DNA of 64,000 bases. Origin: an uncultured Anaerolineales bacterium (GTDB lineage: Bacteria; Chloroflexota; Anaerolineae; B4-G1). Positions 1-60,837 of this stretch are shown here, in pieces. The stretch is taken from NCBI GenBank assembly GCA_964393895.1, contig CAYMWP010000003.1, forward strand, positions 18,351-82,350. The letters are read 5' to 3'. Each line of letters opens with the position of its first letter. Position 1 is the first letter of the stretch. The notes below the pieces were generated by a model. That model was given only the letters and a program-made list of their open reading frames with translations. It was not told the origin of the DNA and ran no database searches. The position numbers and the translations under genes are program-made.

Positions 1-326
1 TCGTTCCTATCCAGACTGAATACTACGCCGCCCACACGCTGCTCTACTTTATCAGGCTGGTGCAGCGCGTGCGAGAAAAGACCAACCCGCGCCTGCAATA
101 TCGCGTGTTGGTGACGATGTACGACCGGCGCAACAAGATCTACCGGGTCATATTGGACCAGATGCAGCGTGGGCTGAGCAAGGTGCTCTTCAAGACGATT
201 ATCGAGGTAGATACCAAGTTGCGGGAAAGCCCGGTGTTTGGCCAGCCGATCACGCTCTACGCGCCGCGCACTCGTGGCGCCATGCAGTACCGCGCTCTGG
301 CCGAGGAGCTGATAAACTATGAGTGA
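1..326 (+). CDS. ParA/Soj-family partition ATPase, C-terminal part (5' end outside window)
   Basis: The frame is open from the window edge. Translation VPIQTEYYAAHTLLYFIRLVQRVREKTNPRLQYRVLVTMYDRRN... resembles the C-terminal half of ParA/Soj ATPases. The stop overlaps the next start by 8 nt. Confidence 0.7.
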   Translation, partial: VPIQTEYYAAHTLLYFIRLVQRVREKTNPRLQYRVLVTMYDRRNKIYRVILDQMQRGLSKVLFKTIIEVDTKLRESPVFGQPITLYAPRTRGAMQYRALAEELINYE

Positions 327-2052: not shown

Positions 2053-2073
2053 CCGTGAAAGGACGCGGCAAAG

Positions 2074-4554: not shown

Positions 4555-4560
4555 GGAGGA

Positions 4561-6690: not shown

Positions 6691-6737
6691 GAAATGGCAT
6701 ACGGCTCAACAGATACGTCGAGTTATTGATCGAGGAA

Positions 6738-7766
6738 ATGACGATGAGTGAGACTTCTCTCGAAGAATACAAACGGCTGCTGGAAAAACAGGGACGGGCG
6801 TTGGTGCAAGTCATCCAATCCGTGGCCCTGGGAGACCTGGACGTAGAGGTCGAGATTCCGGAGGGAATTCAGATGCTCTCCGAGTTGGCCGCCGGGTTAG
6901 AGATGATGATTGACCGTCTGCGGAAGGAGAAGGCTGAGCAAGAGCGGGCAGCGGAGGGCCAGCGTAAAGCGTTGGCTGAGGCGTTGCAGACGACGCGCGA
7001 GCTGACCGAGGAGCGGGATGAGACCCGGAGGCGACTGGAAGAACAAACCGCTCTGCGGGAAGCGGGCCTCATCCTCACCTCTGCACTGGATCAGAGCACC
7101 GTGTTGACCCGCCTTGCCGAGCAGGTATGTCGGGCGGTAGATGGCACCAGCACCTACATTTCGTCCTACGATCCAGAGACGACGGCCGGCGTCGTCTTGG
7201 CCGAGTATTACGGCCCGGAAGCTTGTGCCAAAGAGCGCGTATCCGATCTGGGGGAATCGTATGGCGTCGAGGAAAGCGTCGCTCTCGTCAACGCCGGCGT
7301 TCCTCACCAATATCACGTGGACGACCCTGACCTGGCCGAGTTCGAACGGGCCGCGCTGCGGCAGTATGGAGGCCAATCAGTATTGATCGTTCCCTTGCAG
7401 CTCCGCGCTCGAACCATTGCCTATGTGGAGTTGTGGGATAGCCGAGGACGAAGGGAGTTCACGCCGGAAGAGATCGCCCTGTGCCAGAGCGTCGTGCAGC
7501 AGGCTGCCATGGCTATAGAGAACGCCCGCTTGATCGAGCAGACCCAGGCCCGCGTCCGCCGCGAGCAGGTGTTGCGCGAAATCACCACCCGTGTGCGTAC
7601 CTTCACTGATTCTGATGTCATCCTGCGCGCCGCCGTGCGCGAGCTGGGCGCTGCCTTGGGACGGCCCGCTTTTGTCCTTTTGGGCAGCGCGGAGGAACTG
7701 TCGCCAGTGCTTGCGGAGGTGAACGACGACGACCAGGGGATGGCTTTGCGACAAGGAGACGAGTAG
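6738..7766 (+). CDS. Coiled-coil single-GAF protein
   Basis: The ORF track starts at TTG 6687. ATG 6738 is preceded by GAGGAA and is preferred. One GAF module ends in IENARLI, followed by the conserved tail. The stop lies 1 nt before the next start. Confidence 0.7.
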   Translation: MTMSETSLEEYKRLLEKQGRALVQVIQSVALGDLDVEVEIPEGIQMLSELAAGLEMMIDRLRKEKAEQERAAEGQRKALAEALQTTRELTEERDETRRRLEEQTALREAGLILTSALDQSTVLTRLAEQVCRAVDGTSTYISSYDPETTAGVVLAEYYGPEACAKERVSDLGESYGVEESVALVNAGVPHQYHVDDPDLAEFERAALRQYGGQSVLIVPLQLRARTIAYVELWDSRGRREFTPEEIALCQSVVQQAAMAIENARLIEQTQARVRREQVLREITTRVRTFTDSDVILRAAVRELGAALGRPAFVLLGSAEELSPVLAEVNDDDQGMALRQGDE

Positions 7767-7767
7767 T

Positions 7768-10700
7768 ATGCAAGAACTCGCAGCCAAGATCAGAGACGAC
7801 CTGGATAGGTTGGCGGAGGAGTACGAACGGCTGTTGCTGGAAATTCCCGGCTATCCCGGTATGGCGCAGCAGGCCAGGAGCGAGGCGGCCCGCAATGCCG
7901 TCCAATTGGTCGCCACCGGCCTAGAGGCCGGGGATCAAGATATGTTCGTGCAGTTCGTCCAAGCTGTGGCGGTCGAACGGGCGGCCCAGGGACTTGAAAT
8001 TGACTCCATACAACAGGCGTTGACCGCCCTGGTCGAGGTCGTAGAGCCTCTGCTCGACACTGTCGAGGCCGCCAGTTTTTTGTGGAAAGCGGTGATCCAA
8101 GTTAACACTACGCTCTCCCAGATGGCGATGGAGCGGGCGCGCTCTACCGAGGAGCGCTTCAAATTCCTCGCCGATAACATCACCGTTGGGGTCTTTGTTC
8201 ACCAGGACGGCATCCTGCGCTACGTTGGGCGCGAGGGGGCGCGCATCCTGGGGTACGACGATCCAGCCCAAGTCGTTGGCCGCTCGATCCTCGATTTTGT
8301 GCATCCGAGCGAGCAGAAGCGCATCGCCGACCTGGCCCGTCGCCGCGTCGCCGGCGAGCCGGTTCCAGACCAGTACGAGTCTCGCTTTATCACCAGGGAT
8401 GGCTCCCCTGTGGACGTGCATCTCTACAATACACTCATCGAGTACGAAGGCCGCGTTGCCACGCAGGGAGCGTTCGTAGACATCACCGCGCGCAAAGAGG
8501 CGAACGAGAGGGCTAGACGAGCACAGGAGGCATTACGGGCGATCGTTGACTCTATGCCGTTTGGCGTCATAGTCATCGGTAGAGACAAGATCGTTCGCCG
8601 CGCCAACCAGGCGGCTTTGGAGTTGATAGGGTGTGAATCGCAAGAGCAGATCGTTGGCAAGATCTGCCACGAGACTCTATGTCCGGCCGAAGTGGACAGA
8701 TGCCCCATCCTCGATCTAGGACAGGAACTCGACAGGTCTGAGCGAGTGCTCGTGACCCGAGAGGGGGAGCGTGTTTCCATTCTGAAGAGCGTCGTTCCCG
8801 TGACGCTGGATGGGGAAGAGGCTTTGCTGGAGACTTTTGTAGATATTACCGAGCGCAAGCAGGCCGAGCAGTCTGTTGCCGAGCAGCAAGCTTTCCTGCA
8901 GCGCGTGATTGATGCTGATCCGAACTTTATCTTTGTAAAGGATCGCGAGAGCCGCTTCGTGTTGGTCAATCAGGCCGTGGCCGATGCTTATGGTTCGACC
9001 CCGGAAGAGCTGATCGGAAAATCGGATGCCGATTTCAACCCTAATAGAGAACAAGTCGAAAACTTTCACCGGGACGACCTCAGAGTCATAGACGACCAGC
9101 AGGAGAAATACATTCCCGAGGAACCGATTACCACAGCCTCGGGCAAAGTGCGCTGGCTGCAAACTATCAAGCGTCCCCTAGTAGACGAGGACGGCGTGGC
9201 CCGGCGTTTGCTGGGGGTTTCCACCGACATCACCGAGCGCAAGCGGCTCGAACAAAGGATTCAAGGGTCGTTGGATCGTCGTGGTCGCCAGGTGCAGACC
9301 AGCACCGAGGTGGCCCAGGAGATCGCCGCCGCCACCGAGTTGGAAGAACTGTTCCGCCGTGTGGTCACGTTGATCAAGGAACGCTTCGATTATTATCACG
9401 CCCAGATATTCCGCTACGAGCCGGCGCTGGATGCCGTGTTGTTGGTGGTAGGCTACGGCGAGACCGGCGAGCGGATGCTGGTCGCCGGCCACCGCCTGGA
9501 GCTGGGGCGCGGCGTGGTTGGCACAGCCGCCTTTACCGGTCAATCTGTGTTAGCCTCAGACGTGGCCCAGGACCCCGATTGGGTCCCCAATCCCTTCTTG
9601 CCGGATTCCCAGGGCGAGTTGGCCGTGCCCATCAAGTGGCGCGACGAGGTGTTGGGCATTCTCGATGTGCAGAGCGAGACCGCCGGTGCTTTGACCGAAG
9701 AGGATCAACTCTTGCTCGAAGGGTTGTGTGGGCAGATAGCCATTGCTATCCAAGACACTCGCTTGCGCTTGGAGATGGAGGAGAACCTGCGTGAGCTCGA
9801 ACGACTCACTCGCGCCTCGATCCGCGAGGGGTGGGAAATCTCCCGGCGCGAGAGCGGTGCTGTGGGCTATCGCTTCGACGGGGCCAGCGTCGTCCCAACC
9901 GACGATTCATGGACGCGGGGACCGCAGGCCGGCGGCCGACCAACTGTCGCCACTCCTCTGGCGGTGCGCGGCGAGGTAATCGGCGCGCTGGGCGTGCAGG
10001 ATGACCCGCGCCATCCCCTTTCTCACGAGGACCTGGCGCTGGTCGAATTGGTCGCGGAGCAGGTGGCCCAGGCGTTGGAGAGCGCCCGCCTGTTCGAGCA
10101 GACCCAGGTTGCGTTGGATCAGACCGACGTTCTATACCGCGTTGGCCAGGCGCTCAACGTCGCTGCCAGCTACGATCAAATCGTCGAGGCTTTGAAACTG
10201 CACCCCATCGTCCACCAGGCCAGCCGAGGCGGTATGGGTCTCTTTAACCGTCCGTGGAGCGCCGCCACTGCCGGGAGTCCGTCCGGTGATAGCGTGCCGG
10301 AGTGGGTCGACATGGTCGCCAGTTGGCACGCGCCCGATCAACAGGCCCTCGCTTCCGTCGGTACGCGCTACGAGTTGGAGGCGTTCCCGGTGGCGCGCCA
10401 TTTTCGGCCGGACGAGCCTTTCATCGTCGAAGACATCGCGGACGATCCGCGGCTGGACGATAACATGCGCCAACTCTACCTGGGGCTCTTTCAGGCCCGC
10501 GGAACGATTTTCGTTCCTCTGGTGGCCGGCGAGCAGTGGATTGGCTGGCTCAACGTGCTGATGAACGAACCGGGCGCCTTTCCTGAGGATCAGGTGCGGA
10601 GCCTGATGACTCTGGCTGGACAGGCCGCCGTAGCTTTGCGAAACTTGAGCCACCTGGAGGAGATACGGACCCGCGCCCTTCACGAGCAATCTCTGCGCGA

Positions 10701-11769
10701 GATCGCGGCCCTCATTGCCGCCAGCCAAGACCTGGTGATGAGCTTGCCCGCTATCACCCAACACTTGCGCCAACTGGTCCCCCTGGACGTACTGACTCTG
10801 GCTACTTATACCCCCGGCGACCAGGAATACGTCCTCTTTGCTCCTTCCACCGGCGCGGATACGGAGGCCGATGACTTTGCCCTACCGGGTACTTATCTGC
10901 CGGTGGAGGGAACTTGTCCCGGTTGGGTCATCACTCACCGGGAGCCGTGGCTGGATGCGGACATTCGCCGGGAGATGCTTTTCCTGGAGGACGAACAGCT
11001 CGTCTCGGAGGGAATGATTTCGCGCTTATCTTTGCCGTTGCTGGTTGGGGAGCGGGTTGTCGGTGCCATCAACCTGGGCAGTAAACAGCCCGGAGTCTTT
11101 ACTACAGAGCAGCTGCCGCTCCTGCATCAGGTGGCTGACCAGATGGCGCTGGCTTTGGAGCGCACTCGTTTGTTGCAAGAAACCCGCAATGCCCTGGCCG
11201 AGGCCGAGGCTACCCACCGCGCCTACCTGCAACGTGGCTGGCGCGACTATTTGCGCCAGCAGGAGGCGTTGCGGCGAGGGGCCTTCCTCTACGACCGGAC
11301 GCAAGGAGCCGCCGTGCTGGACGGCTTGACCGAACCGGTAGCCGATCTCTGGCTGCCAGAGATGGAGCGCGCTTTGGCCCAGGGTCTCCCCACCGTAGCG
11401 GACATCGGTGGTGGCGAGGAGAAGCGAACGGGGTTGGCTATTCCCATCGTCCTGCGCGGTCAGACCATCGGCGTGCTGGGCATGGACGACCCCGCTGGCG
11501 AGCACGCCTGGTCTGAGGAAGACCGGGCCGTGATCGAGGCGGTCGGCCGGCAGTTGGCCCAGGCGCTGGAGAACGCCCGCCTGCTGGGAGAGACCCAATT
11601 GCGCGCGCAACGAGAGCGCATCATCGGCGACATCACCAGCCGCGTTCGCGCCTCTATGGATTTGGATAACATTTTGCGGACCACCGTCCGAGAGTTGGGT
11701 GCGGCCCTCGGCACCGATCGTGCCTTCATACGGCTGAACCCAGATGCGCAGTTACCTGAGAAACCCTAA
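7768..11769 (+). CDS. PAS x3 - GAF x5 sensor protein with no output domain
   Basis: 1333 aa. Three PAS-like units, each followed by DITERK or DITARK junctions. Five GAF-terminal motifs (IQDTRLR, LESARLF, LRNLSHL, LERTRLL, LENARLL), then the conserved tail. Confidence 0.85.
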   Translation: MQELAAKIRDDLDRLAEEYERLLLEIPGYPGMAQQARSEAARNAVQLVATGLEAGDQDMFVQFVQAVAVERAAQGLEIDSIQQALTALVEVVEPLLDTVEAASFLWKAVIQVNTTLSQMAMERARSTEERFKFLADNITVGVFVHQDGILRYVGREGARILGYDDPAQVVGRSILDFVHPSEQKRIADLARRRVAGEPVPDQYESRFITRDGSPVDVHLYNTLIEYEGRVATQGAFVDITARKEANERARRAQEALRAIVDSMPFGVIVIGRDKIVRRANQAALELIGCESQEQIVGKICHETLCPAEVDRCPILDLGQELDRSERVLVTREGERVSILKSVVPVTLDGEEALLETFVDITERKQAEQSVAEQQAFLQRVIDADPNFIFVKDRESRFVLVNQAVADAYGSTPEELIGKSDADFNPNREQVENFHRDDLRVIDDQQEKYIPEEPITTASGKVRWLQTIKRPLVDEDGVARRLLGVSTDITERKRLEQRIQGSLDRRGRQVQTSTEVAQEIAAATELEELFRRVVTLIKERFDYYHAQIFRYEPALDAVLLVVGYGETGERMLVAGHRLELGRGVVGTAAFTGQSVLASDVAQDPDWVPNPFLPDSQGELAVPIKWRDEVLGILDVQSETAGALTEEDQLLLEGLCGQIAIAIQDTRLRLEMEENLRELERLTRASIREGWEISRRESGAVGYRFDGASVVPTDDSWTRGPQAGGRPTVATPLAVRGEVIGALGVQDDPRHPLSHEDLALVELVAEQVAQALESARLFEQTQVALDQTDVLYRVGQALNVAASYDQIVEALKLHPIVHQASRGGMGLFNRPWSAATAGSPSGDSVPEWVDMVASWHAPDQQALASVGTRYELEAFPVARHFRPDEPFIVEDIADDPRLDDNMRQLYLGLFQARGTIFVPLVAGEQWIGWLNVLMNEPGAFPEDQVRSLMTLAGQAAVALRNLSHLEEIRTRALHEQSLREIAALIAASQDLVMSLPAITQHLRQLVPLDVLTLATYTPGDQEYVLFAPSTGADTEADDFALPGTYLPVEGTCPGWVITHREPWLDADIRREMLFLEDEQLVSEGMISRLSLPLLVGERVVGAINLGSKQPGVFTTEQLPLLHQVADQMALALERTRLLQETRNALAEAEATHRAYLQRGWRDYLRQQEALRRGAFLYDRTQGAAVLDGLTEPVADLWLPEMERALAQGLPTVADIGGGEEKRTGLAIPIVLRGQTIGVLGMDDPAGEHAWSEEDRAVIEAVGRQLAQALENARLLGETQLRAQRERIIGDITSRVRASMDLDNILRTTVRELGAALGTDRAFIRLNPDAQLPEKP

Positions 11770-11805: not shown

Positions 11806-14800
11806 ATGGTAAAGACTAGCGATAAGCAAAAAACCGAGGTGCAATTGGTCGAAGAGTTGCAAGAGCCGGAGGAGCAGCGCAAGTGGGCCGTAGAGTCCTT
11901 GCAGGCGAGCGAGGAAAAGTATCGCGCGATTCTCGAGAACATTGAGGAAGCCTATTACGAGGTTGACCTGGCTGGCAATTTCACTTTCTTCAACTCTATG
12001 CTGTGCCAGATGCTAGGGTACACGGCCGATGAATTGATGGGCGCGAACTACCGACGTTATACGGACGATGTGTACGCCGATATGGTGTACCGGATTTTCA
12101 ACAAGGTTTACCGCACCGGGGAGCCTACCAGGATATTGGATTGGGAGGTCAACAGTAAGGACGGGGCCAGGAAACTGGTCGAGTCATCCGTGTCGCTGAT
12201 CCGTGACGCTGCGGGCAAGCCCGTCGGGTTCCGTGGTATCGTTCGCGACGTCACCGGGCGCAAGTGGACGGAGGCCGAAATCGTCAAACTCAATCGCGAG
12301 CTGACCACCCTCAATAGGGTTGGTCAGGCCCTCACCTCCGCTCTGGATCTGGAAGAGACGTTGACCCTCATCACCGAGCAAGTGACCAATTTGCTGGGAG
12401 TAGAGGCGACCTCGGTGATCCTTCACGACGAGGTCCAGGATGACTTGTGTTTCGCTGCCGCGTCCGGCAGTGGTGCGGATTTCATACTCAATGCCCGCTT
12501 TGAATTGGGCCAGGGTATCGCCGGCTGGGTCGTACAGCACGGTGAAGCGGCGGTGGTACCCGACGTATCCCGGGACGTGCGTTGGTTTCGTGATTTTGAT
12601 CATAAGAGCGGCTTGGAAACTCGCTCGATCTTGTGTGTTCCCTTGCGAGCCAAAGGACAGATCATTGGCGCTATTGAGGCGGTAAATAAGTGGGATGGCG
12701 ATTTTGACCAGGATGATTTGCGGCTTTTGACCTCACTGGCGGCGCCGGCGGCCACCGCTATCGAAAACGCCCGCTTGTTCGGGCAGTCACAGGCTCGCGC
12801 CGAGGAATTGGCGGTACTGAACGAGTTGGGGCAGGCCCTCACCGCCCACCTCGACGTCGAAGGAGTGCTGGACGAAGCTTACCGGGGTGTCTCGCGCTTG
12901 ATGGATACCACTAATTTTTACGTCGCCCTTTGCGAGCCGGGTGAGGAGGAGGTTACGTTCGCCATAGATGTGCTCGAGGGAGAGGTGCGGAGGTCGCGCG
13001 AAACCCGCAGGGCCGGTCGTGGCCTGACCGAGCACGTCATTCAAACCCGCGAACCCTTGCTCATCGAAGAGGAGCTGCCCGAACGGTTGGAAGAGTTGGG
13101 AATTGCGTTGATTGGACGGATTGCTCTCTCCTGGCTGGGGGTGCCCCTCGTCGTCGGCGACCAGGTGCTAGGCGTGATGGCCGTGCAGAGTTACACCAGG
13201 CCCCGTCTCTACGGCCAGCGCGAGCGAGATTTGCTGGTCTCTGTTGCCAGCCAGGCAGCTATCGCCATTGAGAATGCCCGATCGTACGAGCAGGAACAGG
13301 CCCGCGCCAAAGAACTGGCCGTGCTTAACGAGCTGAGCCAGTCTCTCACCGCCAGCTTGAGCGTGGAGGATGTGTTGGAGGAGGCCTACCGGCAGGCCGC
13401 TCGCCTGGTGGACACGACCAACTTTTACATCGGCCTCTACGACTCGGATAAGGAAGAAGTGGCTATTCCCTTCATCGTCTCCAAGTCGGAGATTGACCGT
13501 CACATCACCGTCGTTCCTGCGGACCAGGGCTTTACCGGCTATATCATCCGCAATCGTACCGCCGTGTTAGTCGAAGAGAACGTGATCGAATGGTTGGAGG
13601 AGAACGGGATTAGCGTGATAGGGGAGCCGGCTCTTTCCTGGCTGGGAGTACCTCTGATCGTCGGCGACCAAGTGCTAGGAGTTATGGCCGTTCAGAGCTA
13701 TATCACCCCCCGCCTCTACGGCGAGCACGACCGCAAGTTGCTGACGGCCATTGCCGGGCCGACGGCTATCGCCATCCAGAACGCCCGGTTGTACGAGCAG
13801 GCGCAGCGCGAAATCGGAGAGCGCAAGCGGGCGGAGGCGGAGGTGCGACGGCGAGCGGAGCAGGCGGCGCTGACCTACAAGGTGGGCCAGCGCGTCAGCG
13901 GCGAACTGGCGTTGGACGAACTGCTATCCGAAATCGTGATTGCTGTGCACGATGCCTTTGATTACTATGGCGTGATGTTGTTGCTCGAGGGAGAAGCAGG
14001 TTTTCTGACCCTGCAATCCGCGGCTGGCGGCTATATTGACGTTCTTCCAACAGATATCGAGATCGCCGTTGGGGAGGGAATGATAGGGCGCGCGGCGGCC
14101 AGTGGTGTGGCCCAAGTCAGCAACGACGTCAGCCAGAACCCCTATTACGTGCGCAACGCGAATGAGGATACAAAATCAGAGTTGGCCGTGCCCATCGAGA
14201 GCGGCGGCAGGGTCATCGGCGTGCTCGATCTCCAGAGTGACGAGCTGGACGCCTTCGACGAGACCGACGTGATGTTGATGGAAACGCTGGCCGATCAAGT
14301 GGGTGTGGTGATCGAGAACGCCCGCCTGTACGAGGAAATCCAGCGTGAGTTGGCCGAGCGCGAGCGGATGGAAGGGGTGTTGCAAGAAACGCACGAGGAG
14401 CTAGAAAAATATACAACCATCCTGGAGCGCCAGACCGCGCGACTGCGAGTGGGGGCCGAGGTGACCCGCAAAGTTTCCGCTATCCTCGATGTGCGACAAC
14501 TTCTCGAAGAGACGGTGCGCCTCATCTCTAATGAATTTGGCTTTTACCACTCGGCAGTCTTCCTGGTGGGCGAGTCCGGCGAGTATGCCATCCTGCGCGC
14601 CGCTTCGTCCGCAGGGGGGCGCCGCATGGTGGAGCGAGGTTACCGGGTGCCGCTTGGTGGGAAAGATGCCGTGGGCTACGTCGCAGCGACAGGTGAACAC
14701 TGCATTGCCCTCGATGTGGGTGAGGGTGCCGCGATGCTTCCCTTTGATCGGGGGGGAGCTGTTGCTTTCAATAACCCCGACTTATCTGACACCCGTTCGG

Positions 14801-17800
14801 AAATGGCGCTGCCCCTGAGGATGCGTGGTCGCACCATCGGCGTGCTGGACATTCAGTCCACTCAAGAGGCTGCTTTCTCCGAGGAGGACGTGGCGGGGTT
14901 TCAGACGCTGGCCGACCAATTGGCCGTTTCCATAGATAACGCCCGCCTGGTAGAGCGCACAGGAGAACAGTTGCGTGAGCAGGAACGTCTCTACGGTGAG
15001 TACAGCGCCTCCGCCTGGGCCGAGTTGCTGTCGCCCGTTCGACCGCTGGGTTACATCTACGATCGCATTGACGTCTCGCCGATATTGGATTCGCCGGCGC
15101 CGCTTGATTTGGCCCCGCAGCGCGTCGAGGCGGAGACGACGGGCGCAATATTGACCATGCCCCTCAAGGTGCGGGGTCGCACGGTCGGCATCCTGGGCGT
15201 AGAAGAGAGCGATGCCGCCCGTGAGTGGTCGTCTGAAGAGGTCGCCATCGTCGAGGCAGTGAGTGACCAGGTAGCCATGGCGCTGGATAGCGCCCGTTTG
15301 TTTGGAGAGGCCCGCACTCGCGCCGAGGAGTTGGCCGTGTTGAACGAGTTGGCTCAATCTCTCACTGCCCGCCTGACCGTGGACGATGTGCTGGAAGAGA
15401 CTTACCAGGGCGTGTCTCGCTTGCTGGATACCACTAACTTTTACATCGGTCTCTACGACCCACAAAAGAACGAAATATCCTTTCCTTTTAACATCACCGA
15501 ATCGGCGGTGGACGAACAGATCGTCGCCATCTCGGCCGATCAGGGGTACGCTGGCTACATAATGCGGAACCGCACGAGCCTGCTCCTCACGGAGGACACC
15601 ATAGAGCAGGTAGTGGAGCGGACGGCCAAGATGGGTATTGAGCATATCGGGCAGTTGGCCCTTTCTTACCTGGGAGTGCCGTTGGTGGTCGGCGACCGGG
15701 TGCTGGGGGTCATGGCGGTTCAAAACTATACCGTGCCCCACGTCTACAGCGAGCACGACCGGAACTTGTTGACGGCCATCGCCAGCCAGGCGGCCATTGC
15801 TCTTCAGAGCGCCCATCTTTTCGAGGAAGCGCAACGGAGGGCGGCTCAGTTGGCGGCGGCTGCCGAGGTCGCCCGGGACGCCACAGCCATCCTGGAAGTG
15901 GACCAGTTGCTAGACGAGACGGTGCACCTCATCTCGGAACAGTTTGGTTTCTACCACGCCGGCGTGTTTTTGCTGGACGAACGGGGCGAGTACGCCGTTC
16001 TGCAAGCGGCCTCTTCCGAGGGCGGGCGCCGCATGTTGGAGCGGGGGCACAGACTGAAGGTCGGCGAGGTTGGCATCGTCGGCTACGCCGCGGCCACGGG
16101 AGAACCTCGCGTCGCTCTGGACGTGGGACAGGATGCCGTGCACTTTGCCCACGACGATCTCCCCGATACCCGTTCGGAGATGGGATTGCCGCTCAAAGTG
16201 CGGGAGAGAGTGATCGGCGTGCTGGACGTTCAATCTGACCAGACGGCCGCTTTCTCCGCTGACGACGTCGCGGCTTTGCAGACGATGGCCGACCAGTTGG
16301 CTATTGCCATTGCCAACGCTCGCTTATTTCAAGAGACCCGCTCCGATGTGTTGCGCCGCGCCCTCATCAACGAGGTGCTCCAGGCCGCTACCGCTTCGCT
16401 GGATCCAGAGGAGTTGCTTCACCAGGCCGGAGAGGTCATCTCCCGGCGACTAGAGTCGCCCACCGCGCTCTTTGTCTGGGAGGCGGAGGATAAAGTGTTC
16501 CGTACGGTCGCCGTCCACGACTCCCAGGCTGCCGACGTCTCGTTACCTGGGGTATTTCAGCAAGTGACTCGCGGGGTAGCCCCGGTTCTCTTTGAGGCGG
16601 CGGAGAGTCGGCGCACTGCCGTTTTGGAGCTGACCTCCGATGCAAGCGGCCCGTTGGTCACTGCGGCCAGGTGGGCGCGGGCGCAATCCATCATTTACGT
16701 TCCTCTGATATCCCGTGATCAGGTACTGGGTTTGCTTGGTATTGGGAAACTCGAGGAGCAGCCTGTCGTGGACGTCGAGTTCACCGAACTCGTGGCCGCC
16801 AACCTGACCGTGGCCGTGGAAAACGCCCGCTTGTACCAGGAGGCAGTGCAAACCGCCGAACGCCTGGCAGAGGTAGACCGGCTCAAGAGCCAATTCCTGG
16901 CTAACATGTCCCACGAACTGCGCACACCGCTCAACTCTATCATTGGTTTCTCGCGGGTCATTCTCAAAGAGATTGATGGCCCGCTTACCGATATGCAGCG
17001 CACTGACCTGCAATCTGTCTACGATAGCGGGCAGCATTTGTTGGGGTTGATCAACGATATCCTGGAAGTGGCCAAGATAGAATCTGGCAGGATGGATTTG
17101 GTCTCGGAAGTGGTGAATTTACAGGATATTATCAGGGGCGTCATGTCAACCGCCATCGCGCTGGTCAAGGACAAGCCCGCCGTCGAATTGCAGCAGTCTG
17201 TTCCCCAAGACCTGCCCACGATTATGGGCGACACGCGGCGTATCCGCCAGGCGATCCTCAATCTCGTCTCGAACGCTGCCAAATTCACCACGGAAGGCTT
17301 TATTCGTGTGGAAGCCGAGGTTGTAGATACCGAGGTGATCGTCTCTGTGGCCGATAGCGGTGTCGGCATCCCGCCAGACAAGATTGATATGATCTTTGAG
17401 CCTTTCACTCAGGCCGACGCATCCACTACCCGCGAGACTGGGGGCACGGGGCTGGGCCTTTCCATCACCAGCAGCTTTGTCGAGATGCACGGCGGTCGTA
17501 TGTGGGTGGAGAGCGAGGTGGGTAAAGGCTCTACATTCTACATGGCATTGCCCATTCATACCCTCTCTTCTATTGAGGAACAAGTGGAGGAGGAACAGCC
17601 AGAGTTAGAGCCTGGACAAAGAGTCGTTCTCTGCGTAGAGGATGACGAAGGAGTCATCACCCTCTTCCGCCGTTACCTGAGCAAGCGGGGCTACAGGGTA
17701 GTCGGTCTCTCCAACAGTATGATGGCGTTGGAACGAGCGCGAGAGTTGCAGCCGTTCGCCATAACGTTGGACGTGATGATGCCCGGCAAGGATGGCTGGC

Positions 17801-18369
17801 AGGTCGTTCAGGAGTTGAAGGCTGATCCTGCGACCAGCGATATTCCCGTTATAATGTGTACCATCGTAGGCGAGGAGGAGCATGGCCTTAGCCTGGGAGC
17901 GGCCGATTACTTGATCAAGCCGATTCTCGAGCAGGACTTGTTGGCTGCGCTGAATCGTCTGGACCGGCAGGATGAGCGACACTTGGTGTTGGTGGTGGAT
18001 GACCTGCCGGAAGATCGAGATCTGTTGAGCCGGATGATCGAGAGCCAAGAGGGATACGAGGTTATGGGGGCCGGCGGCGGCGAGGAGGCCATCGCCATGA
18101 TCCGGCAAACGTTGCCCGATATTATTATTTTGGATCTGATGATGCCAAACGTGGATGGTTTTGCAGTACTCGAGGCGGTCAAGACAGACGAGAACACTCG
18201 CTCTATTCCCATCATCGTTGTAACCGCCAAAGATCTGACCCCAGAGGAGCGCGAGGTCCTGACCGGTGAGGTAGAGTCCCTGCTCCACAAAGGAATCTTT
18301 GACCGGCAAGAGTTACTGGCAGACGTGGCAGGGGCGCTGGAGCGCCTGAGAGGCAAGGTAGGAGACTGA
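11806..18369 (+). CDS. Giant hybrid sensor histidine kinase: PAS - about 9 GAF - HisKA - HATPase_c - REC - REC
   Basis: 2187 aa. Nine GAF-terminal motifs (IENARLF ... VENARLY). H-box FLANMSHELRTPLNSIIGF, G-box GGTGLGLSITSSFVEMHGGRMWVES, and two receiver domains (LDVMMPGKDG and LDLMMPNVDG). Confidence 0.9.
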   Translation: MVKTSDKQKTEVQLVEELQEPEEQRKWAVESLQASEEKYRAILENIEEAYYEVDLAGNFTFFNSMLCQMLGYTADELMGANYRRYTDDVYADMVYRIFNKVYRTGEPTRILDWEVNSKDGARKLVESSVSLIRDAAGKPVGFRGIVRDVTGRKWTEAEIVKLNRELTTLNRVGQALTSALDLEETLTLITEQVTNLLGVEATSVILHDEVQDDLCFAAASGSGADFILNARFELGQGIAGWVVQHGEAAVVPDVSRDVRWFRDFDHKSGLETRSILCVPLRAKGQIIGAIEAVNKWDGDFDQDDLRLLTSLAAPAATAIENARLFGQSQARAEELAVLNELGQALTAHLDVEGVLDEAYRGVSRLMDTTNFYVALCEPGEEEVTFAIDVLEGEVRRSRETRRAGRGLTEHVIQTREPLLIEEELPERLEELGIALIGRIALSWLGVPLVVGDQVLGVMAVQSYTRPRLYGQRERDLLVSVASQAAIAIENARSYEQEQARAKELAVLNELSQSLTASLSVEDVLEEAYRQAARLVDTTNFYIGLYDSDKEEVAIPFIVSKSEIDRHITVVPADQGFTGYIIRNRTAVLVEENVIEWLEENGISVIGEPALSWLGVPLIVGDQVLGVMAVQSYITPRLYGEHDRKLLTAIAGPTAIAIQNARLYEQAQREIGERKRAEAEVRRRAEQAALTYKVGQRVSGELALDELLSEIVIAVHDAFDYYGVMLLLEGEAGFLTLQSAAGGYIDVLPTDIEIAVGEGMIGRAAASGVAQVSNDVSQNPYYVRNANEDTKSELAVPIESGGRVIGVLDLQSDELDAFDETDVMLMETLADQVGVVIENARLYEEIQRELAERERMEGVLQETHEELEKYTTILERQTARLRVGAEVTRKVSAILDVRQLLEETVRLISNEFGFYHSAVFLVGESGEYAILRAASSAGGRRMVERGYRVPLGGKDAVGYVAATGEHCIALDVGEGAAMLPFDRGGAVAFNNPDLSDTRSEMALPLRMRGRTIGVLDIQSTQEAAFSEEDVAGFQTLADQLAVSIDNARLVERTGEQLREQERLYGEYSASAWAELLSPVRPLGYIYDRIDVSPILDSPAPLDLAPQRVEAETTGAILTMPLKVRGRTVGILGVEESDAAREWSSEEVAIVEAVSDQVAMALDSARLFGEARTRAEELAVLNELAQSLTARLTVDDVLEETYQGVSRLLDTTNFYIGLYDPQKNEISFPFNITESAVDEQIVAISADQGYAGYIMRNRTSLLLTEDTIEQVVERTAKMGIEHIGQLALSYLGVPLVVGDRVLGVMAVQNYTVPHVYSEHDRNLLTAIASQAAIALQSAHLFEEAQRRAAQLAAAAEVARDATAILEVDQLLDETVHLISEQFGFYHAGVFLLDERGEYAVLQAASSEGGRRMLERGHRLKVGEVGIVGYAAATGEPRVALDVGQDAVHFAHDDLPDTRSEMGLPLKVRERVIGVLDVQSDQTAAFSADDVAALQTMADQLAIAIANARLFQETRSDVLRRALINEVLQAATASLDPEELLHQAGEVISRRLESPTALFVWEAEDKVFRTVAVHDSQAADVSLPGVFQQVTRGVAPVLFEAAESRRTAVLELTSDASGPLVTAARWARAQSIIYVPLISRDQVLGLLGIGKLEEQPVVDVEFTELVAANLTVAVENARLYQEAVQTAERLAEVDRLKSQFLANMSHELRTPLNSIIGFSRVILKEIDGPLTDMQRTDLQSVYDSGQHLLGLINDILEVAKIESGRMDLVSEVVNLQDIIRGVMSTAIALVKDKPAVELQQSVPQDLPTIMGDTRRIRQAILNLVSNAAKFTTEGFIRVEAEVVDTEVIVSVADSGVGIPPDKIDMIFEPFTQADASTTRETGGTGLGLSITSSFVEMHGGRMWVESEVGKGSTFYMALPIHTLSSIEEQVEEEQPELEPGQRVVLCVEDDEGVITLFRRYLSKRGYRVVGLSNSMMALERARELQPFAITLDVMMPGKDGWQVVQELKADPATSDIPVIMCTIVGEEEHGLSLGAADYLIKPILEQDLLAALNRLDRQDERHLVLVVDDLPEDRDLLSRMIESQEGYEVMGAGGGEEAIAMIRQTLPDIIILDLMMPNVDGFAVLEAVKTDENTRSIPIIVVTAKDLTPEEREVLTGEVESLLHKGIFDRQELLADVAGALERLRGKVGD

Positions 18370-18374: not shown

Positions 18375-20042
18375 ATGAAACAGAACGGATTCAACCACCG
18401 GGTTTGGCTGGAATGTGCGGATTGTGGGCACCGCACTTTGTTTGTTCGTCCGCTGAGGGCGTGTGAAAAGTGTGGCGGGCAATGGCTCGACGCGACTTAT
18501 GATTATGACCGTATTCGGGAGCAATGGCCGGCCGTGTTGAGCAAGCGCCCTTTCGACATGTGGCGCTATCGGGAACTCTTGCCTTTGCGCGACGACGTCA
18601 ACAAGGTGACGATGGGGGAGGGTGGAACGCCGCTGCTCCACGCCGTCAACCTGGGAGTGATGCTCGGCGCTCCCCACATCTACTTCAAAGACGAGCGGCA
18701 GGGGCCGACCGGTTCGTTCAAAGACCGGCAGGCGGCGTTGGCTATTTCGGTGATGAAGGAGCACGGTGTGACTGAGGCGATCGTCGCTTCTACAGGCAAC
18801 GTTGCCATTTCCTACTCGGCCTACTCTGCGCTGGCCGGTATCAAGATGTGGACTTTTCTCACCAGCCTGGTGCCATCTGAAAAGATGCGCGAGGTGGCGC
18901 TTTATGGGAGTGAGGTCGTCAAAGTGACCGCCACCTACGATCAGACCAAGCGAGTGGCGGCCGATTTTGCCGAGCGTAAAGGGATCTTTCTCGACCGGGG
19001 TATTCGGAGCATCGCGGCCCGCGAGGCTATGAAGACCGTCGCTTTCGAGATGGCCGAGCAGTTACCCCTGCTGGTTGGCTCCGGCGCTACCCCCTGGCGC
19101 GCGCCCGATTGGTACTTTCAGGCCGTCAGTGGGGGAATGGGGCCGGTAGGTGTGTGGAAAGCTTACCAAGAGTTGATAGAGTTGGGTCTGGTGGACAAGG
19201 CGCCCAAATTAGCTTGCATCCAGGCCGCCGGCTGTGCACCGATGGTACACTCCTTCGACAAGGGCTTGGAGGAGGCCGAGCCGATCCTCAACCCTCAGAC
19301 GTTGGTCATCACCATCGCCACCGGAAACCCCGGCCCGGCCTATTCTTTCTTGGCTCGTGTCGTCCGGGAGCACGGAGGGGCCTTTGAGTCCGTGACCGAC
19401 GAGGAGACTTTCCGCGCTATGCACGTGATGGCCAAGTTGGATGGCGTCTCGATGGAACCGGCGGCGGCGGTCGCTTTCGCCGGGTTGTTCAAGTTGCTCA
19501 GTAAGGGTATAATAAAACGTGACGAGGTCGTGGTCGTCAATTGCTCCGGCCATACCTTCCCGGTCGAAAAGCACCTGCTGGGCGGCGAGTGGGCGAGGAC
19601 GGTGGAGGTGCCCTCTGAGAAGCCTACCGTCGAAGAGGGATTGTTAGGTTCTTTGGAACAACTGGATGGCCGGGTACAGAGCATCGCCATCATTGAGGAT
19701 AACCCTCAGGCTACGCTGTTGTTGCGACGTATCCTGCAAACCAGGGGAGAGCATCGGGTTTTCGAGGCGCACGATGGGGCCGAGGGGTTAGAGTTGGTGC
19801 GCCGCGAGCGGCCTGACTTGGTCTTGTTGGACCTGATGATGCCGGGTATGGATGGCTTTGAAGTGCTGGACGCGCTCAAGGCCGACGAAGACTTGAGAGA
19901 CGTGCCGGTGATTGTCATCACGGCCAAAGAGTTGACCGCCGCCGAGCGGCAGCGCCTCAGTGGAAGGATTGACAAATTGATGCAGAAGGGTTCCTTTACC
20001 GATGAAGAACTGTTGGAGGAGATTCTCAAGCGGGCATCATGA
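18375..20042 (+). CDS. Threonine-synthase-like PLP-dependent enzyme fused to a C-terminal receiver (REC) domain
   Basis: N-terminal Cys4 ribbon (CADCGH...CEKCGG). ThrC-type motifs WRYRELLP, GEGGTPL, and PTGSFKDRQAALAIS carrying the PLP lysine. C-terminal REC (IAIIEDNPQ..., LLDLMMPGMDGF, VIVITAKE). Confidence 0.85.
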   Translation: MKQNGFNHRVWLECADCGHRTLFVRPLRACEKCGGQWLDATYDYDRIREQWPAVLSKRPFDMWRYRELLPLRDDVNKVTMGEGGTPLLHAVNLGVMLGAPHIYFKDERQGPTGSFKDRQAALAISVMKEHGVTEAIVASTGNVAISYSAYSALAGIKMWTFLTSLVPSEKMREVALYGSEVVKVTATYDQTKRVAADFAERKGIFLDRGIRSIAAREAMKTVAFEMAEQLPLLVGSGATPWRAPDWYFQAVSGGMGPVGVWKAYQELIELGLVDKAPKLACIQAAGCAPMVHSFDKGLEEAEPILNPQTLVITIATGNPGPAYSFLARVVREHGGAFESVTDEETFRAMHVMAKLDGVSMEPAAAVAFAGLFKLLSKGIIKRDEVVVVNCSGHTFPVEKHLLGGEWARTVEVPSEKPTVEEGLLGSLEQLDGRVQSIAIIEDNPQATLLLRRILQTRGEHRVFEAHDGAEGLELVRRERPDLVLLDLMMPGMDGFEVLDALKADEDLRDVPVIVITAKELTAAERQRLSGRIDKLMQKGSFTDEELLEEILKRAS

Positions 20043-21385
20043 TCGCTAAGGACAGTACAAAGATTCTCTACGTAGAGGACGATCCATCTAGCGCGACTTT
20101 GATGCGTCGCCTGCTCGAAAGCGAGGGCTACCGGGTCGTGCACGCCTCGGATGGCCTCTCCGCCATAGAGGTTGCCAGGTGCGAGTCGCCTGACCTGATC
20201 CTGATGGATATAAACATCGGTGGATTAGATGGCTACGAGTTGACCACTCTCCTGCGCTCCATCGAGGAACTGGAGCACGTGCCCATCGTGGCCGTTACTG
20301 CCGCCACGTTGGATGGCGACCGAGAGCGTGCGCTCATTGCCGGATGCACCGGCTACATCCCCAAGCCGATCAACGTGGACGAATTCCCGAGCCAGGTGTA
20401 TTCCTTTCTCCAGGGGACGAAGGAAGAGATCGAGTCTGCGGAGGAGAAGAGCGAGTACCTGGTCGAGTACAGCCGTAGCCTGGTGGATCGGTTGGAGAGC
20501 AAGATCCGCGAGCTGGAGGGGGCGCATGCCGAGTTGCAGCGCATCGAGAAGGTAAAGTCGGACTTTATCATCCTGGCCAGCCACGAGCTGCGCACGCCGA
20601 TGACGTGCGTCTATGGTTACATCCAGATGTTGCTCGCCAACCCGGATATTCCCGGCGATGCCGACGAGGAGGGCAGCGCCCGCAACTTGCTCCACCGCAT
20701 CGCCTCCGCCACACACCGGCTTGGGCTGGTCTTTGACGAGATCCGCAACGTTTCCCTCATTGACGCCGATCGCCTGGATCTGGCCTGGGAGCCGGTGCCC
20801 CTCAGGTCGCTGATCCGCAACGTGGTGAACAGTCTGGAGAAGGTTGATCCAATGCGGGATTTGAAATTCGATTTTGAGGGAGTTGATGATCTACCGGTGC
20901 TCTATGGGGACGATAAGCGTTTGCACCAGGCGCTATGGAATGTCATCAGTAACTCGATAAAGTACACGCCCGACGGCGGACACATACGCATCGTGGGCCG
21001 TCAAATTCAGGATACGGTGCATCTATCTATCCAGGACAGCGGCGTGGGTATTCCTCCGGGGGAGCAGGAGCACATATTCGATCACTTCTACGTGTTGGAG
21101 GATACCAGCTTTCACCACACCAGTAAAACGGCGTTCAAGGGGGGAGGGTTAGGGCTGGGGCTTACCGTGGCTCGAGGCATCATCGAGAATCACGGCGGCA
21201 AGATTTGGGTGGAAAGCGAAGGGTACGACGAGGAGCGGTTGCCGGGCAGCACCTTTCACATTCTCCTGCCGTTGCGTGAAGCTTCGCTCTCGTTGTACGA
21301 TACATCTATTCCAGCTTCCATTCCAGGGGAACATTACCCTCTGCCAGATGCATCCCTGGATCGCGAGACATCAGAATCAGACTGA
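20039..21385 (+). CDS. Response-regulator receiver - HisKA - HATPase_c hybrid histidine kinase
   Basis: ATGA overlap with the upstream stop. REC (ILYVEDDPSS..., ILMDINIGGLDG), H-box LASHELRTPMTCVYGY, and an ATPase G-box GGGLGLGLTVARGIIENHGGKIWVES. Confidence 0.9.
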   Translation: MIAKDSTKILYVEDDPSSATLMRRLLESEGYRVVHASDGLSAIEVARCESPDLILMDINIGGLDGYELTTLLRSIEELEHVPIVAVTAATLDGDRERALIAGCTGYIPKPINVDEFPSQVYSFLQGTKEEIESAEEKSEYLVEYSRSLVDRLESKIRELEGAHAELQRIEKVKSDFIILASHELRTPMTCVYGYIQMLLANPDIPGDADEEGSARNLLHRIASATHRLGLVFDEIRNVSLIDADRLDLAWEPVPLRSLIRNVVNSLEKVDPMRDLKFDFEGVDDLPVLYGDDKRLHQALWNVISNSIKYTPDGGHIRIVGRQIQDTVHLSIQDSGVGIPPGEQEHIFDHFYVLEDTSFHHTSKTAFKGGGLGLGLTVARGIIENHGGKIWVESEGYDEERLPGSTFHILLPLREASLSLYDTSIPASIPGEHYPLPDASLDRETSESD

Positions 21386-22223
21386 CCCCCAGCAGCCCGC
21401 TCCCCAGCCACTGCACGAGTGTCATCCGCTCGCCCAGCAACAAGAAGGCCAGCACCAGGCTGACTGTGAGTTCCAGTAGGCCGGCCAACGCCGTCTCAAT
21501 TCCTCCCAGCCGCTCCAGCGCGAAAAACATTGTCAACCGAGATAGGGCGGTCGTCAGGCCCAGCGCCAGTATAGCCTCCCATCCGGTGGTCGTTATAGTC
21601 TCCAGCGGCTCCGCTTGTATCACCCGCGCGATGCCGACTATGCAGGCCATGGTCGTCAGGATGTAGAGCGCCGCCTTGCGCGCCGGCACGTCGGTCAGCA
21701 CCCATTGACCCAGCACCAGATGCCAGCCATAAGTCGCTGCCGAGGCGACCATCAGCGTCACCCCTAGCCAGTTCAGTTCTCCGGTACCGGCGCGCGTCAG
21801 CAAATAGATGCCCAGTGTGGAGAGCCCAAGCCGCGCTACGGTGAGGCGCGTCAATGGCTGCCCGGACGCAAAGAGGAAAAGCACCACCCACAACGGGTAG
21901 AGAGTGTTGAGCAAAGAGGCGCGGGAGGCATCTATGTGTAGGAGGCCCGTGTAGTAGAGCAGCGACCCAAAGCCGTTGACTGCGCCTACTCCGATACAGC
22001 CGATGAGATCACGCCAGGATATGATGATTTCGCGGCGCCAAAAGATCACGAAAGCCAGCCAGAGAAGCAATGCTGCTACCACTGTGCGGAAGGCCACCAG
22101 CGTATATGGCGTGACGCCATAGGCATAGGCCATCTTGCCCAGAATGGGCGCCCAGCCCAAAAAGAAGCTGGCCACAACCGTGGCTGCGACTCCCTGACGT
22201 TGTTCACGGCTTAGACTAGACAT
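21306..22223 (-). CDS. EamA/DMT-family transporter
   Basis: About 10 hydrophobic helices and duplicated EamA-like halves. The start was moved to the internal ATG at 22223 (MSSLSREQRQ...), because the longer ORF N-terminus is not transporter-like. Confidence 0.75.
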   Translation of the reverse strand: MSSLSREQRQGVAATVVASFFLGWAPILGKMAYAYGVTPYTLVAFRTVVAALLLWLAFVIFWRREIIISWRDLIGCIGVGAVNGFGSLLYYTGLLHIDASRASLLNTLYPLWVVLFLFASGQPLTRLTVARLGLSTLGIYLLTRAGTGELNWLGVTLMVASAATYGWHLVLGQWVLTDVPARKAALYILTTMACIVGIARVIQAEPLETITTTGWEAILALGLTTALSRLTMFFALERLGGIETALAGLLELTVSLVLAFLLLGERMTLVQWLGSGLLGVSLILMSRDPGMHLAEGNVPLEWKLE

Positions 22224-22281: not shown

Positions 22282-22824
22282 TTGGCGATGAGCGGGAAAC
22301 AAAAACTAATCGTAGCAGTTTTGGCAATTGCCAACGCTGTCTTGATCCTGGCTCTGGCGAGGCTGATGCTACGCCCATTCGATGCCGTTACCTCGCCTCT
22401 GCCTACGCCCTGGATCAAGGCTTCCGCGTCGCCTCCTGGATCCGAGGGAGGGGCCGCATCGTTCCCTCACGAGGTCTGCCGATGGGAGGCGGCTCAGATG
22501 CTGGCCCAGGCCGGGCTGGCCGGTACGGCGGCGCTTGTTTCCGATGGCTCACTTTGTTTCGAGATCACACATTCTCTCCCGCCAGGCGCAGAGGCCGACT
22601 CGGCCGCTCAGTCAATTTGGGCGGTCTTTGACGTCGCACTGGCCTTGCAAGAGCGCGATTGCGCGTTCACCCAGATCGAGGTCACTGTCCTGGCTCGGGG
22701 GGCTCAATCCGACGTGCGGGTCGAAGCGAGCGTCGGCGCGGCCGACCTGGCGGCCTTTGGCGCTGGCGAGTTGAGCGAGGATGAACTCATCGAGCGCGTG
22801 ACGTACACTGTTTTTGTTCAATGA
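22282..22824 (+). CDS. Hypothetical protein with an N-terminal membrane anchor
   Basis: 180 aa ORF with N-terminal helix LIVAVLAIANAVLILALARLML. No recognisable domain. Confidence 0.4.
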   Translation: MAMSGKQKLIVAVLAIANAVLILALARLMLRPFDAVTSPLPTPWIKASASPPGSEGGAASFPHEVCRWEAAQMLAQAGLAGTAALVSDGSLCFEITHSLPPGAEADSAAQSIWAVFDVALALQERDCAFTQIEVTVLARGAQSDVRVEASVGAADLAAFGAGELSEDELIERVTYTVFVQ

Positions 22825-26372: not shown

Positions 26373-26479
26373 TGCTCTGTCCTCGGCTGGGGGTGGCAGA
26401 CGGTAGACAGGGGAAGACAATTCCCAGTCTCGAGAGAAAAGGCCGGGGTATTCTCTGTTTACCGTCTGCCGTTCGCGGT

Positions 26480-26533
26480 CTACTTCTTTTTCTTCTTCTT
26501 ATCTTTCTTGTTCTTATCTTTCTTCTTGCTCAT
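26480..26533 (-). CDS. Candidate 17-aa Lys-rich micro-ORF (MSKKKDKNKKDKKKKKK)
   Basis: An ATG preceded by GGAGGT with a 7-nt spacer, and a TAG stop. It lies between a PPK2 gene and ppk1. It is too short for the ORF track. Confidence 0.35.
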   Translation of the reverse strand: MSKKKDKNKKDKKKKKK

Positions 26534-26564
26534 AGCTTTGACCTCCGTAGATTAATAGAGTTCC

Positions 26565-27350: not shown

Positions 27351-27359
27351 AATTTCCCC

Positions 27360-28139: not shown

Positions 28140-28159
28140 TTTTCGCCTCCCCCGATTGA

Positions 28160-28190
28160 GACCCTGGGGGTTTCAGAAAACCCTAGAGTC
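28160..28190. repeat. Palindromic element copy (imperfect)
   Basis: GACCCTGGGGGTTTCAGAAAACCCTAGAGTC lies between PPK2 and adk. The adk stop codon lies inside it. Confidence 0.75.
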
Positions 28191-28851: not shown

Positions 28852-28882
28852 ACCTCCATTGGGGTTATGTCTTGGAATGTAA

Positions 28883-58271: not shown

Positions 58272-58349
58272 CCTTACACAAGACAAAACGCCTCGCGTCA
58301 AGATGCGGCCGGCTTTGTTTTACTTGCATTGCTCACAAGGAGCCATTCA

Positions 58350-59918: not shown

Positions 59919-59935
59919 TAACTGGAGCAAGAATA

Positions 59936-60751: not shown

Positions 60752-60765
60752 GGTCCGGTGCGCCT

Positions 60766-60834: not shown

Positions 60835-60837
60835 TAG

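Follow-up and report, generated by a model that had tools for sequence, protein, structure and literature searches.

A threonine synthase-like PLP enzyme fused to a receiver domain in Anaerolineae, a predicted catalytic output of a multi-kinase relay

The DNA analysed in this work, a stretch of 64,000 nucleotides from an uncultured Anaerolineales bacterium (contig CAYMWP010000003.1, assembly GCA_964393895.1; hereafter the window), carries a gene whose product joins a pyridoxal 5'-phosphate (PLP) enzyme domain related to threonine synthase (ThrC) to a C-terminal receiver domain (REC) of two-component systems. The best reading of this fusion protein is that of a response regulator with a ThrC-descended PLP enzyme as its predicted effector. 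Comparison with orthologues has shown, as far as conserved residues can indicate, that the PLP-binding site and the phospho-acceptor site are both complete and under strong purifying selection across Chloroflexota, mostly Anaerolineae. A probability of about one half is given to the proposal that the fusion is a phosphorylation-gated PLP enzyme, which would serve a multi-kinase relay as its catalytic output, in connection with a transporter. The elements of the gene are listed below; orthologue counts refer to 79 fused orthologues (77 for some REC positions), which were translated from each locus and aligned.

18375..20042, plus strand: the fusion gene, with an ATG start and 555 amino acids plus stop, coding for a zinc ribbon, a ThrC-like PLP domain, a linker and a REC.
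18414..18473, plus strand: ribbon of four cysteines (C14, C17, C30 and C33), found in 79/79 orthologues, with a mean model confidence score (pLDDT) of about 90 at residues 11-40 and a weak DUF7129 match.
18606..19547, plus strand: fold-type-II PLP domain of the ThrC lineage (residues 78-391; Pfam PALP, E 7e-60).
18720..18722, plus strand: codon of the lysine predicted to form the Schiff base with PLP, Lys116, which aligns with K61 of the Thermus thermophilus ThrC and is found in 79/79 orthologues.
19575..19673, plus strand: interdomain linker (residues 401-433) with an EEGLLxxLxQLD helix, according to the consensus of an 11-sequence alignment.
19683..20021, plus strand: receiver domain (residues 437-549; Pfam Response_reg, E 3.5e-21).
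19830..19832, plus strand: codon of Asp486, the predicted phospho-acceptor, aligned with CheY D57 and found in 78/79 orthologues.

The original prediction, made from the letters of the window alone, had described a Cys4 ribbon, ThrC-type motifs and a PLP lysine context, and these were confirmed by Pfam, by sequence matches in the Protein Data Bank (PDB) and by alignment. The ribbon cysteines are spaced C14-x2-C17-x12-C30-x2-C33, and the PLP-lysine motif PTGSFKDRQAALAIS was found in the protein, with Lys116 aligned with the Schiff-base lysine of solved threonine synthases. In addition to this lysine and the four cysteines, H393, F115, S139, G141 and N142 are present in 79/79 orthologues and T140 in 78/79. 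In the glycine-rich loop S252-G-G-x-G-P257, the residues S252, G253, G256 and P257 were found in 79/79 and G254 in 77/79, and position 391 (S391, the expected ring-nitrogen contact of the cofactor) is occupied only by S, T or C in the 11-sequence alignment. The prediction had also considered a loss of catalytic residues other than the lysine, and this has not occurred, since the PLP-binding residues are kept in 77-79 of the 79 orthologues; a pseudo-enzyme was rejected because of this conservation of the PLP site.

The REC reached 75.9 bits against PF00072, with a gathering threshold of 30.2. Its residues E441/D442, D486, T516 and K538 align with D12/D13, D57, T87 and K109 of CheY, so that the acidic pocket, whose absence had been considered, is in place and the domain is intact as proposed. 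Among the orthologues, D442 was found in 79/79, T516 as T or S in 78/79 and K538 in 75/77, the set being kept in 75-77 of 77; a degenerate REC was rejected for the subfamily of the window and was only seen in the distant P0127 group described below. Over all of these positions, which comprise the PLP lysine, the residues that bind PLP, the ribbon cysteines and the phospho-acceptor set of the REC, conservation amounts to 96-100%. On average, the orthologues are 71% identical to the query in the PLP domain and 64% in the REC, which indicates that neither domain is decaying. An AlphaFold2 model of the fusion (average pLDDT 84, and about 90 or higher in most of the catalytic core) displays the REC as beta1-alpha1-beta2-alpha2-beta3-alpha3-beta4 followed by helices, with pLDDT of 75-93 up to residue 515 and below 50 from residue 516 on, a drop probably due to the shallow REC part of the alignment behind the model. 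The linker helix appears in the model at residues 423-428, with low pLDDT at 408-421. The 11-sequence alignment revealed that the linker is conserved and that the reading frame is continuous through the fusion.

The identical protein was found on 7 metagenome contigs, and the 120 best clusters (78-100% identity), which come from Chloroflexi/Anaerolineae metagenome-assembled genomes, all carry PF00291 and PF00072. The PALP-receiver fusion is present in more than 240 protein clusters, several of which stay separate at 50% identity. An unfiltered search of 1.84 billion representatives, for which the first 434 residues served as query, recovered additional fused clusters with about 50% identity (P0121 and P0123-P0127); two RECs are present in two of these clusters. 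When one genome per GTDB species was scanned with the clade patterns SFKDRQA[AS][LV] and [RVK]E[AS]MKT[IVL]A[FY], at least 577 relatives with the clade motifs SFKDRQA and E[AS]MKT were confirmed. The best 80 of these all belong to Chloroflexota, mostly to the class Anaerolineae, and include Anaerolineales, Caldilineales, Thermoflexales, Ardenticatenaceae, Promineifilaceae, Aggregatilineales and Ca. Leptofilum; in 80/80 the query was matched to residue 527-555, into or through the REC. A second subfamily with two receivers (PALP-REC-REC, about 700-725 residues) comprises more than 120 clusters of the same class and is as large as the single-REC one. The claim that a metabolic PLP enzyme is an unusual output is therefore upheld in one respect, the fusion being real, and has to be corrected in another, because it is not a singleton but a lineage-wide Chloroflexota family with a second PALP-REC-REC subfamily.

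In view of these data, it is highly improbable that the fusion arose from faulty assembly, a frameshift or wrong gene calling, or that the protein is a pseudo-enzyme in decay. An artefact or a frameshift is refuted by the presence of the identical protein on 7 contigs, by the recurrence of the fusion across clusters and species-representative genomes, with hundreds of independent full-length occurrences, and by the conservation among orthologues; the continuous frame, the conserved linker and the near-invariant functional residues of both domains argue in the same direction. The weak points that could be set on the other side are the low model confidence at residues 516-555 and the single distant subgroup with a degenerate REC (P0127).

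The PLP domain clearly descends from ThrC. Its best PDB sequence matches, obtained with phmmer, are the threonine synthases 2d1f, 2zsj, 1uim and 6cgq (E 1e-47 to 1e-39, about 30% identity to solved ThrCs), and Foldseek with the AlphaFold2 model as query returned at the top the threonine synthases 6nmx, 2d1f, 2zsj and 1v7c (E about 1e-28), followed by the CapA2 cysteate synthase 9k3c and then by threonine deaminases and serine racemases. The fold-type-II PLP fold is shared with the bacterial enzymes of T. thermophilus (1UIM/1V7C), Mycobacterium tuberculosis (2D1F), Aquifex aeolicus (2ZSJ) and Bacillus subtilis (6CGQ), together with the PTGSFKDR lysine motif, the STGN loop, the (W)RYR.LLP segment and EPA.A. 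Two features typical of ThrC, the WRYRELLP segment near the N-terminus and the STGN loop, do not vary in the 11-sequence alignment. The fusion differs from bacterial ThrC in its extra N-terminal Cys4 ribbon, its C-terminal REC and a neighbourhood of signalling genes instead of threonine-pathway genes. Some threonine synthases with canonical motifs (P0163, P0196, P0203 and P0250) also align from the ribbon region onward, and the ribbon is thus probably not the mark of the fusion clade.

In contrast to this likeness in fold and descent, the specificity implied by the term ThrC-type in the original prediction was not sustained, because the window protein remains below the curated ThrC cutoffs (PRK08197, 267.5 vs 303; TIGR00260, 155.5 vs 167.1; PRK05638, 178.7 vs 421) and ThrC-invariant motif positions are replaced. 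Positions that are identical in 2d1f, 2zsj and 1uim differ in the query, namely T88 (V143), N154-S155 (R208-G209), R160 (A215) and N188 (G253). The ThrC motif NSVNPxRxEGQKT is changed to DRGIRSIAAREAMKT in the query; within it NSVNPxR, which spans N154-S155 to R160, reads DRGIRSIAA (as a pattern, DRGxRSxxx), and PVGNAGN is changed to AVSGGMGP, with SGGMGP in the place of GNAGN. The replacement residues are themselves kept in the family, with D207 in 76/79, R208 in 62/79 (plus 6 with K), G209 in 79/79 and M219-K220-T221 in 77-79 of 79 fused orthologues. We take T88, N154, S155, R160 and N188 (T. thermophilus numbering, 1V7C) to be the residues that hold the phosphate of O-phosphohomoserine. Judged from these alignments, the substrate pocket appears to be remodelled, not lost. 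Cysteate synthase, another ThrC-derived enzyme of about 400-430 residues (CapA2; 9K3C), matched most of the first 430 or so residues of the model (Foldseek E 2e-24, TM 0.75), and cysteate synthase-like relatives share with the fusion a PLP-phosphate loop of the QAVS..MG type. This identity was rejected by the TIGR03844 score (114.7 vs a cutoff of 324.9); cysteate synthase also lacks the REC of the fusion, the neighbourhood of which shows no coenzyme-M or sulfonolipid genes.

The same evidence bears on whether the protein could be a genuine threonine synthase, possibly the only one of the cell, with a REC appendage through which threonine synthesis would be phosphorylation-gated. Every top sequence and fold match is a threonine synthase, the two ThrC-typical segments are invariant, and many members of the family are named threonine synthase by the Prokaryotic Genome Annotation Pipeline (PGAP), another database label being pyridoxal-phosphate dependent enzyme. 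No second ThrC homologue was found by tblastn with the T. thermophilus ThrC in the 64-kb window or in 88 loci, which cover about 20 kb per genome, the fusion gene being the only match. ThrC-type cores with an appended regulatory module are also known from the plant threonine synthase (2C2B), which S-adenosylmethionine activates through an added N-terminal region, and from the NC10 ThrC-like protein with a LeuA_dimer domain. In these two cases the modules bind metabolites non-covalently, whereas that of the fusion is a predicted phosphorylation switch. Set against a housekeeping role are the failure of the window protein at every curated cutoff and the replacement, throughout the family, of four motif positions invariant in solved bacterial ThrCs. 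The conserved partners are kinases and EamA or GNAT proteins, no conserved hom or thrB neighbour being present in the neighbourhoods examined or among the window open reading frames scanned, and the existence of a PALP-REC-REC subfamily in the same class suits specialised signalling proteins better. A housekeeping threonine synthase is therefore considered unlikely, and the database label, either threonine synthase or PLP-dependent enzyme, probably misleads metabolic reconstructions.

Some relatives are informative in this respect. The only non-fused close relative, P0122 (420 residues, in a cyanobacterium-like context), passes the ThrC cutoffs of PRK08197 (305.5 vs 303) and TIGR00260 (180.9 vs 167.1), which favours a threonine synthase identity. 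Outside its own small group, its nearest neighbours are nearly all PALP-REC proteins (57-65% identity); it was rejected as a non-fused ancestor because it is nested among fused proteins, and a loss of the REC is probable. The most distant fused member, P0290 (49% identity; locus L006, 10001-15462), has a degenerate REC with a weak Pfam match, and its cluster representative P0127 has lost the acidic pocket and the lysine of the REC. P0290 adjoins argF (ornithine carbamoyltransferase), argD (acetylornithine aminotransferase) and pyk (pyruvate kinase) and not kinase genes of the signalling type, a setting that also speaks for a metabolic ThrC, and this lineage may have abandoned the switch.

Other ThrC-like fusions were observed in P0177, P0253 and P0247, which carry respectively a C-terminal LeuA allosteric/dimerisation domain (about 619 residues, NC10), an N-terminal inositol-monophosphatase domain (718 residues) and an N-terminal RNase H/RVT_3 domain (571 residues). 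A non-fused Zn-ribbon ThrC-like relative with 44% identity (P0134; locus L092, 218-6140) lies in a co-directional row with a 619-residue protein, a radical-SAM/SPASM enzyme, a TauE-family anion exporter and an iron alcohol dehydrogenase, which may be a small biosynthetic cluster. The transfer of a function from non-fused outgroups was rejected, since P0136 was uninformative and the context of P0134 suggests another chemistry in a protein that is too distant.

The fusion gene is surrounded by genes for sensors, histidine kinases and a transporter, as follows.

319..11769, plus strand: five tightly packed sensor-only genes, coding by Pfam for GAFx2, dCache-HAMP-GAF, 7TM-PAS-GAF, GAF and PASx3-GAFx5 proteins.
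11806..18369, plus strand: giant hybrid histidine kinase of 2187 residues, with PAS, about 9 GAF, HisKA, HATPase_c and two REC domains (Pfam).
20039..21385, plus strand: REC-HisKA-HATPase kinase of 448 residues (Pfam), whose start overlaps the fusion stop.
21306..22223, minus strand: transporter of the EamA/DMT family (Pfam EamA), 305 residues in the JGI call.

The proposed embedding of the gene in a phosphorelay is supported by Pfam, with a PAS-GAFx9-HisKA-HATPase-REC-REC protein upstream (HisKA at residues 1694-1761 and HATPase_c at 1808-1917) and a REC-HisKA-HATPase protein downstream. The upstream kinase stops with TGA at 18367-18369, and after 5 nucleotides (caaag) the fusion begins at 18375, with AGGAG located 8-12 nucleotides 5' of its ATG; at the 3' end, the fusion shares an ATGA (20039-20042) with the beginning of the gene that follows. 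Both the 5-nucleotide gap after the giant hybrid kinase and the ATGA overlap with the next REC-kinase agree with what had been described. No HPt domain was found by Pfam in the giant kinase or in the operon, and no DNA-binding regulator in the operon of the window. The five sensor-only genes, spaced by 21, 6, -4 and 1 nucleotides and located directly 5' of the hybrid kinase gene, probably belong to the same operon as the fusion; no transmitter or other output domain was detected by Pfam in their products, the 7TM one being of the HisKA_7TM type. In locus L003, a dCache-HAMP-GAF module is contained within a single kinase of 2472 residues, which suggests gene fission or modular sensor subunits. 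In the same locus, a gene with Schlafen/AlbA_2 and HATPase_c_4 domains (1139-2305) separates the giant kinase gene from the gene for a GAF protein upstream of it. In the window, the REC-kinase and EamA genes overlap by 80 nucleotides at their convergent 3' ends (21306-21385).

The neighbours of the window were mapped onto 77 independent loci. A homologous GAF-rich kinase C-terminus was found to end at 400 nucleotides or less upstream of the fusion in 58/70 loci with enough flank, and the start of a REC-HisKA-HATPase gene at 500 nucleotides or less downstream in 55/73. An EamA/DMT transporter gene is present within 3.5 kb downstream of the fusion in 40/62 loci, in four arrangements: on the same strand after the REC-kinase (18 loci), convergent after the REC-kinase as in the window (13 loci), immediately 3' of the fusion and co-directional with it (7 loci) or directly convergent (2 loci). 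Since the transporter stays near the fusion through these rearrangements, a functional link is likely. The EamA protein of the window gave a weak match to NCBIfam TIGR00950 (carboxylate/amino acid/amine transporter), and most members of the EamA family export amino acids or compounds derived from them.

In the PALP-REC-REC subfamily, the following four loci have been analysed.

L005, 10001-13429: PALP-REC-REC locus.
L008, 10001-14050: PALP-REC-REC locus.
L089, 8001-11868: PALP-REC-REC locus.
L090, 8001-11463: PALP-REC-REC locus.

In all four, a giant GAF kinase precedes the fusion, after which come first one or two single-domain receivers and then a GNAT acetyltransferase with a length of about 290 residues. 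In L005, which is the one with readable REC positions, the upstream kinase shows no C-terminal REC. To judge from these domain orders, receivers seem to have been relocated among the members of the module. In 2/4 of these loci, the GNAT gene is followed by an alpha-amylase gene.

This redistribution of receivers bears on a further explanation, in which the PLP domain would be a ligand sensor whose external aldimine with an amino acid gates the uptake or release of phosphate by the REC, making the protein a metabolite-gated sink or branch point between kinases. Such sensing has a precedent in GabR, of the GabR/MocR regulators, which respond through an external aldimine. The REC is C-terminal, the gene is flanked by those of a hybrid kinase and a REC-kinase, and the operon has neither HPt nor DNA-binding regulator. 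With 41-52% identity, the last receiver of the hybrid kinase upstream is the one most similar to the fused REC. In the single-REC subfamily the kinase has REC-REC and the enzyme one REC, and in the second one the kinase has none and the enzyme REC-REC, with free RECs after it, a shuffling that is typical of relay and sink modules. For sensing, the binding of PLP and of a ligand would be enough, but conservation reaches about 71% over the entire ThrC core, in which many residues of pocket type are invariant; the repeated association with a transporter or an acetyltransferase points to a flux of small molecules, as product or substrate; and we know of no REC that is regulated in such a direction by an N-terminal enzyme-like domain. 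A sensor is thus judged to be as doubtful as the housekeeping synthase, and an enzyme is favoured over a ligand sensor by the conserved link to EamA, or to GNAT in the second subfamily. The GabR/MocR type consists of a fold-type-I aminotransferase-like domain with a winged helix, whereas the fusion is of fold-type II (PALP) and no helix-turn-helix domain was detected in it by Pfam, so that only the idea of PLP sensing is shared.

In the favoured interpretation, that of a gated enzyme at the end of the relay, one or both of the neighbouring kinases would phosphorylate Asp486, and the phosphorylated REC would then activate or inactivate the catalytic domain, either by way of the conserved linker helix, by dimerisation of the REC or by a combination of the two. 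ThrC-type enzymes are dimeric and must close a small domain over the substrate, and a switch of this kind fits such an architecture. The reaction would be a beta- or gamma-elimination or a replacement on an activated amino acid, which the protein is predicted not to bind in the way in which canonical threonine synthase binds O-phosphohomoserine. The EamA transporter would move the product or the substrate, and in the PALP-REC-REC subfamily the adjacent GNAT acetyltransferase would modify the product or the substrate instead. Several points weigh against this interpretation. The fused REC is C-terminal, which is the usual place of relay or sink receivers and not that of regulators that drive an effector; the EamA gene is missing from about a third of the loci; and the last 40 residues of the model are of low confidence. 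In addition, the phosphate-binding roles given to T88, N154, S155, R160 and N188 are presumptive, and the PGAP names, together with a P0122 above the ThrC cutoffs, make a genuine threonine-synthase activity possible.

An intact REC joined to a catalytic domain, with cognate-looking kinases adjacent, is also found in the CheB methylesterase, the PleD and WspR diguanylate cyclases, the RpfG HD-GYP protein and the PP2C-type regulators. The fusion differs from all of them in that its effector is a PLP enzyme of amino acid metabolism and in that its REC is C-terminal, theirs being N-terminal. A likeness of logic only exists with the Lqs/Cqs autoinducer systems, in which a PLP-dependent synthase, LqsA or CqsA, operates with sensor kinases and a response regulator (PMC3376566), in both cases a PLP enzyme for an amino-acid-derived molecule beside two-component proteins. 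LqsA and CqsA belong to fold type I, transfer acyl groups and carry no REC, no homology to the fusion is implied, and a signal as the product of the Anaerolineae enzyme is an analogy only. A bolder and rather improbable proposal is that kinase, ThrC-REC and EamA form a self-contained system for small-molecule production and release in filamentous Anaerolineae, in which the kinases would integrate intracellular cues, phosphorylation of the REC would gate a neofunctionalised enzyme and EamA would export a non-proteinogenic amino acid or a signal. If true, the synthesis of a metabolite or signal would be under post-translational two-component control without a transcription factor.

The open reading frames scanned in the remainder of the window included no gene of the threonine pathway. 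A polyphosphate cluster on the minus strand (22787-30796) codes for a protein with Metallophos and Ppx-GppA domain III/HD regions, PPK1, two PPK2, an adenylate kinase and a CYTH-HTH-CHAD protein, and is not kept beside the fusion in the other loci looked at. It is followed on the same strand by a run of DNA-repair type (31154-55225), with a RecQ-like helicase of 1059 residues (N-terminal TPR, C-terminal HRDC), RecJ, a PD-(D/E)XK nuclease, two UvrD-like helicases, a DEAD-box helicase and a DinG-like helicase. The segment at 58329-64000 carries the gene for HsdM, the methylase of a type I restriction-modification system. The G+C content peaks at 0.70 at 32-34 kb and drops from about 0.64 to 0.50-0.53 over 60-64 kb, a low-G+C region that may be a horizontally acquired island.

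No description of a ThrC/PLP-receiver (PALP-REC) fusion was found in full-text literature searches. To our knowledge, PALP-REC is absent from Galperin's response-regulator censuses, and we know of no phosphorylation switch on a ThrC-type enzyme. Two-component systems almost always end in transcription or in second-messenger enzymes, and a receiver fused to a PLP enzyme of amino acid chemistry implies that sensor kinases would control a metabolic reaction directly, at the post-translational level. The novelty is tempered by the many enzyme types to which receivers are known to be fused, and the fusion is more than a singleton, constituting a lineage-wide, context-locked module. The family is abundant across the Anaerolineae of sediments, digesters and activated sludge, an environmentally dominant and poorly cultured class. 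Once its reaction has been worked out, the fusion would provide an output for the giant multi-GAF kinases that characterise these bacteria and that the family almost always accompanies, a new chemistry or mode of regulation in the ThrC family and a PLP scaffold switchable by phosphorylation.

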